The notes beneath the pieces were generated by a model that was given only the letters and a program-made list of their open reading frames with translations, searched no databases and was not told the DNA's origin. From contig NZ_CAWLFA010000001.1 in the NCBI RefSeq assembly GCF_963860125.1, forward strand, positions 1,847,930 to 1,879,929: a DNA stretch of 32,000 nt, read 5' to 3'. Every line of letters begins with the position of its first letter. Within the stretch, counting starts at the first letter, position 1. The translations under genes were made by a program, and so were the position numbers. This DNA comes from Picosynechococcus sp. PCC 7002. GTDB lineage: Bacteria > Cyanobacteriota > Cyanobacteriia > Cyanobacteriales > MRBY01. Below, one piece after another: positions 13,176-13,824 of the stretch.

Positions 13176-13191
13176 TTTGGGAGAACAACCG

Positions 13192-13422
13192 ATGCTGATC
13201 CAAAAAATTATCGATGAACTCCATGAAATTCCTGAGGATAAACTGAATCAGGTCTATGAACTCATTCATTATTTTCAGTTGGGGCTCAAACAAGAGCAAA
13301 TAAGCATTCCATCAAACGATACAGTCCAAACTTGGTCACAGGGAAATCCTCTCAAAAATACGATTATTGCCGAAGAGGATATTGTGAGCCCGATTGATGT
13401 TGCTTGGGATGCCCAAACATGA
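13192..13422 (+). CDS. type II antitoxin (VapB-role, DUF2281-like N-terminus)
   Basis: 76-aa acidic protein with [22 protein letters not shown]. Its stop overlaps the PIN toxin start as ATGA. The ATG at 13192 lies 16 nt after the cas7 stop and is preceded by GGGAGA. Confidence 0.6.
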
Positions 13423-13805
13423 TCATCCTAGATACCCATGTCTGGATCTGGTGGATGACCGAATCACCAAAATTATCTAGTCCAGCAGCAGCGGCGATCG
13501 CCGAATATTCCATCATTGGCATACCCAGTATTTCTTGTTGGGAAATAGCAATGTTAGTCGCGAAAAATCGTCTTACTTTCTCGATGGATGTTCAAACTTG
13601 GCTGAAATTATCCTTAGAACATCCCAAAATTCGGCTTTTACCCCTCAGCCCAGAAATTGCGGTGCTTTCCACCCGCTTACCTAAAAATTTTCACAGTGAT
13701 CCAGCGGATCGACTCATTGTTGCAACCTGTTTAACCTACCAAACTTCTCTGGTGTCCAAAGATTCTCTAAGTCAACAATGGGGACAGTTAGAAGTGATTT
13801 GGTAA
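13419..13805 (+). CDS. vapC: PIN-domain ribonuclease toxin (VapC family, COG3744-like)
   Basis: Starts [12 protein letters not shown]. The four conserved acidic PIN positions are present: D5, E42 (CWEIA), D97 ([10 protein letters not shown]) and D115 (VSKD). Product is 128 aa. Confidence 0.8.
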
Positions 13806-13824
13806 TTTTTGAGATGAAAAAATA

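Follow-up and report, generated by a model that had tools for sequence, protein, structure and literature searches.

Why does a toxin-antitoxin (TA) pair lie between two effector genes of a CRISPR-Cas operon? The question is raised by a 32,000-nucleotide (nt) stretch of the chromosome of Synechococcus (Picosynechococcus) sp. PCC 7002 (the window, by which we mean this whole stretch), in which we found a complete, co-directional type I-MYXAN (I-B) CRISPR-Cas unit comprising cas6/cmx6, cas3, cas8/cmx1, cas7/DevR, cas5/cmx5, a cas4-cas1 fusion, cas2 and an array. Two small genes separate cas7 from cas5. A sequence-only reading had described them as a VapBC-type pair with all acidic catalytic positions, co-directional within the interference operon, and our analysis agrees with that description. 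We consider it fairly probable that the pair is a VapBC addiction cassette which came from a mobile (selfish) source and lies in the operon without a promoter of its own. Judging from the sequences of related loci, the junction between cas7 and cas5 looks like a recurrent TA slot in cyanobacterial I-MYXAN loci, and not like a one-off accident.

The VapBC-type pair and its junctions

The pair and the spacers on either side of it occupy the following positions, and all of the coordinates and gaps claimed earlier (16 nt, the ATGA overlap and 19 nt) hold to the base:

13176-13191, plus strand: cas7-antitoxin spacer of 16 nt, with a Shine-Dalgarno-like GGGAG at 13179-13183 and without a conserved promoter element
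13192-13422, plus strand: vapB-like antitoxin gene, 76 amino acids (aa), always PIN-paired, of modular architecture, with an AlphaFold (AF2) model of low confidence
13419-13805, plus strand: vapC PIN-domain toxin gene, 128 aa, with a Pfam PIN match, the invariant acidic columns, and an AF2 model with Foldseek matches to VapC/FitB
13806-13824, plus strand: A/T-rich vapC-cas5 spacer of 19 nt, without a terminator hairpin

The cas7 stop codon (TAA) is at 13173-13175 and the antitoxin ATG at 13192, with the GGGAG sitting 8 nt ahead of the latter. At 13419-13422, the stop codon of the antitoxin gene and the start codon of the PIN gene share the sequence ATGA, and the PIN stop, which ends at 13805, is followed by the cas5 ATG at 13825. 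In Synechococcus (Picosynechococcus) sp. PCC 7002, the exact window proteins carry the accessions ACA99762-ACA99764. About 200 contigs on record encode the PIN protein in exactly this form, and the context is identical in all of those that were read (21/21).

The PIN protein matches Pfam PF01850 with E=3e-15, and residues D5, E42, D94, D97 and D115, which are invariant in an alignment of 40 homologs (52-80% identical), are all present in it. A Foldseek search with its AlphaFold model (pLDDT 97.4) retrieved VapC30, FitB and the VapC proteins of Shigella and Klebsiella at TM 0.7-0.8, with a lower match to the PIN-like pro-CRISPR factor PcrIIC1 bound to Cas9 (8wmm_G, TM 0.62). It should be noted that a PDB sequence search with the PIN protein gave no match, the relation to solved structures having come from the fold search, and that PADLOC defence models matched neither TA protein at E<=1. 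From its sequence, the pair is best classed as a VapBC-type type II TA system, in itself an ordinary VapBC member, and the cassette is probably still active.

The antitoxin has no such family to be assigned to. The 76-aa open reading frame (ORF) showed no Pfam, NCBIfam or PADLOC family match, even at permissive E-values, and a PDB sequence search with it returned only noise. It is, nonetheless, kept beside the PIN gene in every context examined, cas and non-cas, always as the upstream partner. Two helices form its N-terminal part, a variable linker follows, and the C-terminal part bears a conserved motif (W..NPLKN..I.E.D..SPID..W). The motif is kept with PIN partners and replaced where the partner is ParE, and the N-terminal helices are exchangeable among homologs. 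At L090:5001-5580, the N-terminal domain of the window antitoxin is joined to a different C-terminus and paired with a ParE-like toxin, which shows domain shuffling between antitoxin families. Such a modular N/C build, as predicted from the homologs, is typical of type II antitoxin design. The AlphaFold model of the antitoxin, with two helices and a disordered tail, has a pLDDT of 55, which is too low for a fold search; as modelled, the N-terminal domain could be DNA-binding.

When compared with known VapBC systems (Mycobacterium tuberculosis VapBC30, Shigella VapBC and Neisseria FitAB), the pair shares a PIN toxin of about 130 aa with four acidic residues and a VapC-like predicted fold, a small upstream antitoxin with an ATGA overlap, and a mobile, patchy distribution that includes TA islands. 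It differs, however, in that the databases searched gave no VapB family (AbrB, RHH, Phd or MerR type) for its antitoxin, and in that the site shows no sign of an autoregulated promoter of its own and seems to leave no space for one.

Occupancy of the cas7-cas5 junction and inheritance of its cassettes

To place the pair among related loci, we scanned genomes (one per species) with a Cas7 alignment as query, which yielded 79 loci, almost all of them cyanobacterial, and counted occupancy of the cas7-cas5 junction in the 75 loci having both genes. The two genes are separated by about 0-40 nt or overlap in some 76% of related loci, such that the earlier claim that cas7 and cas5 are normally adjacent holds for these and fails for the rest. 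In 18 of the 75 loci, an insert of 400-1100 nt was found exactly at this junction, and all of these inserts are type II TA pairs, or what remains of them, that run in the direction of the operon. Four TA families were found in the slot:

ParE/RelE-family toxin (PF05016) with a 78-aa antitoxin: intact in 12 loci
ParE type, decayed: L017, degraded by repeat insertion, and L032, antitoxin only
VapBC, in the species-level sample: L007 and L012
MNT with HepT: L029, where HepT is shortened to 45 aa
DUF433 with DUF5615: L056, beside a leftover ParD-like antitoxin

Decay on the toxin side with the antitoxin kept was seen in L007, L029, L032 and L056. The ParE-type cassette of L017 is broken (7911-8050) by sequence encoding a 'PLLPFWEKGLGDEG'-like peptide, presumably a short dispersed cyanobacterial repeat. 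Similar peptide strings also occur in inserts between cas8 and cas7 in L015, L039 and L078.

For the ParE type, TA identity follows the identity of Cas7 plus Cas5 (Pearson 0.70, Spearman 0.55, 66 pairs), so that these cassettes were for the most part passed on together with the operon. In L009, L076 and Synechocystis PCC 7339 (L184/L185), parE ends in an overlap with the cas5 ATG (ATGAnTAA), which implies translational coupling. In the clade of the window, the slot is filled in all of the sampled loci (8/8), with cassettes of two types:

VapBC: the window, L002, L003 and L007
ParE: L009, L076, L184 and L185

The cassettes of L003 (VapBC) and L009 (ParE) differ even though their Cas proteins are 91.5% (Cas7) and 90.6% (Cas5) identical, indicating a recent swap.

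The same VapBC pair is thus found at the same junction in L002, L003 (Synechocystis sp. LKSZ1) and L007, with PIN proteins that are 80%, 75% and 83% identical to that of the window, respectively. The spacers in L002 and L003 measure 15-17 nt upstream and 18-19 nt downstream of the pair. In L007, the antitoxin is intact and the PIN gene is a pseudogene with an in-frame stop at W41, together with changes at the invariant H7 and R98. The ratio of nonsynonymous to synonymous substitution rates (dN/dS) was 0.09-0.19 for both TA genes, as compared with 0.04-0.11 for cas7 and cas5, these ratios being rough because dS is near saturation; at the sequence level, both TA genes are under purifying selection. 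Although near saturation, the dS of the TA genes is comparable in magnitude to the dS of cas7 and cas5 on either side, which argues for vertical co-inheritance. As estimated from its presence in relatives and from a dS similar to that of the flanking cas genes, the insertion is old. The sequence-only reading had also held that it was probably not very recent, and this stands on the grounds just given; its use of a HIP1 site (GCGATCGC, at 13494, within the module) as evidence of age does not, as the donor pool is itself cyanobacterial and HIP1 is hence a weak indicator of age here.

Two of these loci deserve a comment of their own. The L007 contig (CALRTB020000022.1) is titled as a metagenome-assembled genome of Sphingobacterium thalpophilum, yet its Cas7 is 95% identical to that of PCC 7002 and its vapBC slot is the same; the contig is probably mis-binned or a contaminant. 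In L003 (AP031572), the order WYL-cas6-cas3-cas8-cas7-vapBC-cas5 is kept, with cas5 at 7038 followed by an 83-aa ORF and PmbA/TldD. No cas4-cas1 or cas2 was called or detected downstream of cas5 in this locus, where an interference module with its TA pair appears to persist without the adaptation module.

The module is also found well outside CRISPR-Cas loci. PIN relatives of about 75% identity belong to multi-TA islands in Microcystis and one further cyanobacterium, and those of 63-68% identity are either solitary or part of glycosyltransferase operons in Nostoc and Dolichospermum. One relative (68%) is found in another Myxan locus, between cas5 and cas4-cas1. A metagenome scan with the PIN alignment yielded, on short contigs, mainly distant non-cyanobacterial PIN proteins, its only additions being L095 and L162. 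The PIN tree shows free copies and cas-embedded ones intermingled. We considered a single ancestral VapBC insertion and rejected it, given this interleaving and the placement of L012 and L091 in a different PIN subgroup. One and the same PIN subfamily has moved into Myxan operons on at least three separate occasions, one of these being at the junction between cas5 and cas4-cas1. Because close PIN relatives sit in TA islands and other operons, the module can be taken, on sequence grounds, as a generic mobile TA and not a Cascade-specific gene. According to the sequence-only reading, identical TA copies with flanking duplications at many unrelated sites would speak for simple selfish insertion, and the relatives of about 75% identity in TA islands go part of the way in this direction.

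In L180 (4075-5631, Dolichospermum planctonicum) and L005 (Nostoc sp. PCC 7524), the VapBC subfamily lies co-directionally in a glycosyltransferase/hexapeptide-transferase cluster. The L180 pair comes after a 179-aa Hexapep gene and before a Hexapep fragment of 71 aa, and looks as though it had broken up or displaced a gene.

We also considered whether inserts are unique to the cas7-cas5 junction and rejected this, as other junctions are occupied too: that between cas3 and cas8 in 15 of 71 loci, that between cas8 and cas7 in 5 of 80, and that between cas5 and cas4-cas1 in 42 of 58. The cas7-cas5 junction is the only one occupied by TA pairs exclusively. Between cas8 and cas7, a co-directional DUF559 gene (Vsr-like endonuclease fold, about 140-170 aa) was seen in six loci (L014, L015, L038, L039 and L071 among those named; e.g., L015:811-1326). 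Between cas5 and cas4-cas1, there are genes of Uma2-family putative endonucleases (24 loci) and extra CRISPR arrays (about 26 loci), as well as MNT/HepT pairs, DUF433/DUF5615 pairs and PIN genes (examples are L028:9383-10123, L084:9258-10014 and L060:10615-11013). The inserts between cas3 and cas8 are about 500-600 nt long and hold small conserved ORFs of about 80-125 aa (e.g., L079:5057-5437 and L069:4893-5336), one cluster of which has a weak helix-turn-helix (HTH) signal; these may be another small two-gene module.

Expression within the CRISPR-Cas unit

The genes around the cassette all run in the same direction as the pair, as follows:

6843-7820, plus strand: HTH-WYL-WCX regulator gene (Pfam HTH_11, WYL and WCX), whose stop directly abuts the cas6 ATG
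7821-8486, plus strand: cas6 (Cmx6), TIGR02807 E=6e-51
8431-10767, plus strand: cas3 (HD nuclease and helicase), Pfam Cas3_HD and Cas3-like_C_2
10764-12272, plus strand: cas8 (Cmx1/DevT large subunit), TIGR03485 and TIGR03486
12315-13175, plus strand: cas7 (DevR/Cst2), TIGR02585 E=2e-33
13825-14457, plus strand: cas5 (Cmx5/DevS), TIGR02586 E=8e-31, 107.1 bits
14538-16196, plus strand: cas4-cas1 fusion, TIGR03983 E=2e-193 (cas1_MYXAN), Pfam Cas4 and Cas1
16199-16492, plus strand: cas2, in the 97-aa form called on the identical contig
16748-17723, plus strand: CRISPR array (14 repeats, each 36 nt long) that runs in the same direction as the cas genes, Rfam CRISPR-DR33

The NCBIfam type I-MYXAN models for cas6, cas8 and cas1 scored above their curated cut-offs, as did TIGR02585 and TIGR01875 (cas7) and TIGR01573 (cas2), and the cas5 model falls just under its cut-off of 111.5 bits. 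For cas3, 8431 is the start of the longest ORF, and a start near 8476 would give the 763-aa gene annotated on the identical contig. The gap between cas5 and cas4-cas1 in the window is only 80 nt. The WYL regulator gene lies upstream of cas6 in relatives too, and its HTH-WYL-WCX product is likely the regulator of the whole transcription unit. A tRNA gene (17893-17966, minus strand) lies about 170 nt past the last CRISPR repeat and is followed by a signal recognition particle RNA gene (18587-18683, plus strand), such that the edge of the CRISPR-Cas island adjoins a tRNA, a classical integration landmark.

The earlier claim that the pair has no dedicated promoter or terminator was examined by scanning the junctions, and none was found there. 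A consensus scan directly upstream of the antitoxin gene revealed no sigma-70-like promoter. The weak TTGCAG-15-TAATTT ahead of the antitoxin gene has no conserved counterpart in L002 or L003, and the sole promoter-like site nearby (13799-13826) overlaps the cas5 ATG and would start transcription inside cas5. RNA folding and scanning at both junctions gave no convincing intrinsic terminator and no significant structure. With no promoter-like site upstream and no terminator-like element flanking the pair, co-transcription of the TA genes with the Cascade genes would be the most economical reading, and the earlier claim fits it.

Control by a CRISPR RNA-like transcript, as in CreTA/CRISIS-type systems, was considered and rejected, because there is no solitary or degenerate repeat in 6400-16745. 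All matches to the repeat, in full or as its 3' half with up to three mismatches, fell within the array (16748-17723), and the Rfam CRISPR-DR model gave no sub-threshold match in 6400-16745 at a permissive threshold.

Competing explanations and known systems

If the pair is a selfish addiction cassette, as we favour, it would be transcribed in a WYL-cas6-cas3-cas8-cas7-[vapB-vapC]-cas5-cas4/1-cas2 unit, by read-through that begins at the cas promoter, and its translation would start from a Shine-Dalgarno site of its own, while cas5 and the adaptation genes would be expressed by read-through across the cassette. VapC would be toxic and the antitoxin labile, and continuous antitoxin synthesis would be needed to neutralise VapC, by which the cassette would act as an addiction module. 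Deletion, shut-off or polar disruption of upstream Cascade transcription would then release the RNase and lead to arrest or death. By such post-segregational-killing logic, the cassette would stabilise itself and the CRISPR-Cas operon alike, be it as a by-product or as a selected benefit. The slot shows a complete TA life cycle of gain, vertical retention with the cas genes under purifying selection, toxin-first decay and swap for other TA families, which fits a selfish element.

There are several points on the other side that need to be considered. Cyanobacterial promoters can consist of a -10 element alone, and one could hide in the 3' end of cas7. The window VapC has a lineage-specific K89 (codon 13683-13685) where at least 90% of the 40 homologs, including the closest cas-embedded ones, have Gly, and as this residue lies only five positions ahead of the catalytic D94/D97 loop, it may attenuate the toxin. 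The occupancy of 18 in 75 loci is a raw figure, to be read against the background rate of TA insertion in cyanobacterial operons. Moreover, the slot is without a TA in about three quarters of related loci, and the toxin has decayed in five of the cassettes that fill it; CRISPR persistence hence does not require a TA. Finally, for the Myxan-type Cascade of Synechocystis PCC 6714, nothing but Cas8b, Cas7b, Cas5b, Cas6b, Cas11b and CRISPR RNA went into the complex that was reconstituted and purified (PMC11096372).

It is conceivable, if somewhat doubtful, that TA cassettes are selected as guards of Cascade-operon expression, as a protein-based, transcription-coupled analogue of CreTA; the cas7-cas5 junction would then be a slot dedicated to families of equivalent function (VapBC, ParDE-like, MNT/HepT and DUF433/DUF5615) that are interchangeable by recombination via the conserved cas flanks. 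A promoterless TA placed below cas6-cas3-cas8-cas7 and translationally linked to cas5 would report any loss of operon transcription, and deletion, polar insertion of an insertion sequence, promoter mutation, or phage- or anti-CRISPR-mediated repression would trigger killing or arrest. An abortive-infection or backup arm, kept as a second layer of defence with a dosage that follows Cascade expression, seems unlikely to us. In it, phage shut-off of host transcription, or silencing of the cas promoter by an anti-CRISPR or a repressor, would leave the labile antitoxin to decay and VapC to arrest the infected cell. Operon embedding and tight coupling would be equally expected of it, the unit comes after the gene of a WYL regulator, which belongs to a class connected with the control of defence (PMC4012209), and four RNase or translation-targeting toxin families converge on one slot. 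In addition, work on CreTA/CRISIS shows that toxins within cas operons can give anti-anti-CRISPR protection (bioRxiv 10.1101/2024.12.27.630466). However, neither protein matches a PADLOC defence model, and the relatives of about 75% identity are found in generic TA islands, and more distant relatives in operons for polysaccharides. A strongly selected defence role is also hard to square with toxins that often decay and with a cassette that most loci lack.

The generic nature of this mobile TA, with its many contexts, would also suit a neutral passenger, namely a TA in a permissive spacer, with a cryptic promoter in the 3' end of cas7, VapBC autoregulation and no consequence for the cas operon. 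Other junctions do gather small selfish-looking genes (DUF559, Uma2 and small HTH-like ORFs), and the antitoxin N-domain could be DNA-binding. We nonetheless give this explanation little credence, as the only candidate promoter is weak and not conserved and the scan found none, and as cas5 must be transcribed through the cassette anyway, the downstream spacer being 19 nt or an overlap. Moreover, at least five independent co-directional TA insertions in a spacer of about 10-40 nt, with the slot filled throughout one clade (8/8), are hard to obtain by chance. Far less probable still is a recruited accessory nuclease, with VapC as a Cascade/Cas3 partner, such as an RNase directed at target transcripts or, in the manner of the PIN-like PcrIIC1 (type II-C), a pro-CRISPR factor. 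The fold match to PcrIIC1 and the stable position among effector genes are in line with it, but the best structural matches are canonical VapC toxins and the purified Myxan Cascade contains no such subunit (PMC11096372). The gene, moreover, always travels with the antitoxin, its nearest relatives sit in TA islands, and unrelated toxins (ParE, HepT and DUF5615) fill the slot equally well.

A full-text literature search found no description of a cyanobacterial TA slot between cas7 and cas5. Kopfmann and Hess reportedly described, in 2013, type II TA systems including PIN toxins in association with CRISPR-Cas loci on plasmid pSYSA of Synechocystis 6803; these modules are said to lie beside or between CRISPR-Cas systems, with promoters of their own, and not between cas7 and cas5. 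In the chromosomal stabilisation model, TA cassettes in integron or genomic-island arrays, expressed by read-through, prevent large deletions. Such arrays resemble the present case in that a small TA is embedded among dispensable, horizontally mobile genes, whereas the slot in the window is an operon junction whose conserved cas flanks could mediate exchange by homologous recombination. Integron attC-like recombination sites were not seen, although no search was aimed at them.

The sequence-only reading had set the arrangement apart as one that it did not recognise as described. Within this CRISPR subtype it is not unusual, in view of the 18 of 75 loci with a TA at the same junction, and there is an archaeal precedent: vapBC pairs are interspersed in the cas gene cassettes of Sulfolobales, where Garrett and co-workers proposed that they maintain CRISPR-Cas in the population (PMC4390879, PMC3119797). 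The likeness lies in a protein VapBC inside cas cassettes with a proposed maintenance role. The Sulfolobales pairs, however, are archaeal and found mainly in type III and inter-module positions within hypervariable regions, whereas the type seen in the window belongs to a bacterial type I-B/MYXAN Cascade operon, at one fixed junction with tight or overlapping boundaries, with four alternating TA families and vertical co-divergence. CreTA/CRISIS systems likewise carry a toxic module among Cascade genes that is expected to penalise effector loss or silencing, and CreTA-type toxins are reported to be triggered upon inhibition of Cas proteins (summarised in bioRxiv 10.1101/2024.12.27.630466). There, a solitary degenerate repeat RNA directs Cascade to repress the toxin or defence promoter, whereas in the window toxin and antitoxin are both proteins, and any coupling would go through shared transcription and not through Cascade activity. 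The fixed, recurrent multi-family slot, translationally integrated in a bacterial Cascade operon, thus appears to be new, while the theme of TA modules within cas loci was already known.

CRISPR-Cas loci are costly and often lost or inactivated, and experimental answers as to how they are kept have so far come mainly from RNA-based CreTA guards. Anyone engineering, transplanting or deleting the I-B/Myxan operon should consider that, as predicted from sequence, it contains a likely active RNase toxin whose antitoxin would depend on operon transcription. If protein TA cassettes embedded in the Cascade operon do stabilise it, guarding of this kind would no longer be limited to RNA-based modules but would include ordinary type II TA systems, and bacteria as well, and would give TA modules a concrete role that can be tested in Synechococcus sp. 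PCC 7002, a genetically tractable model.

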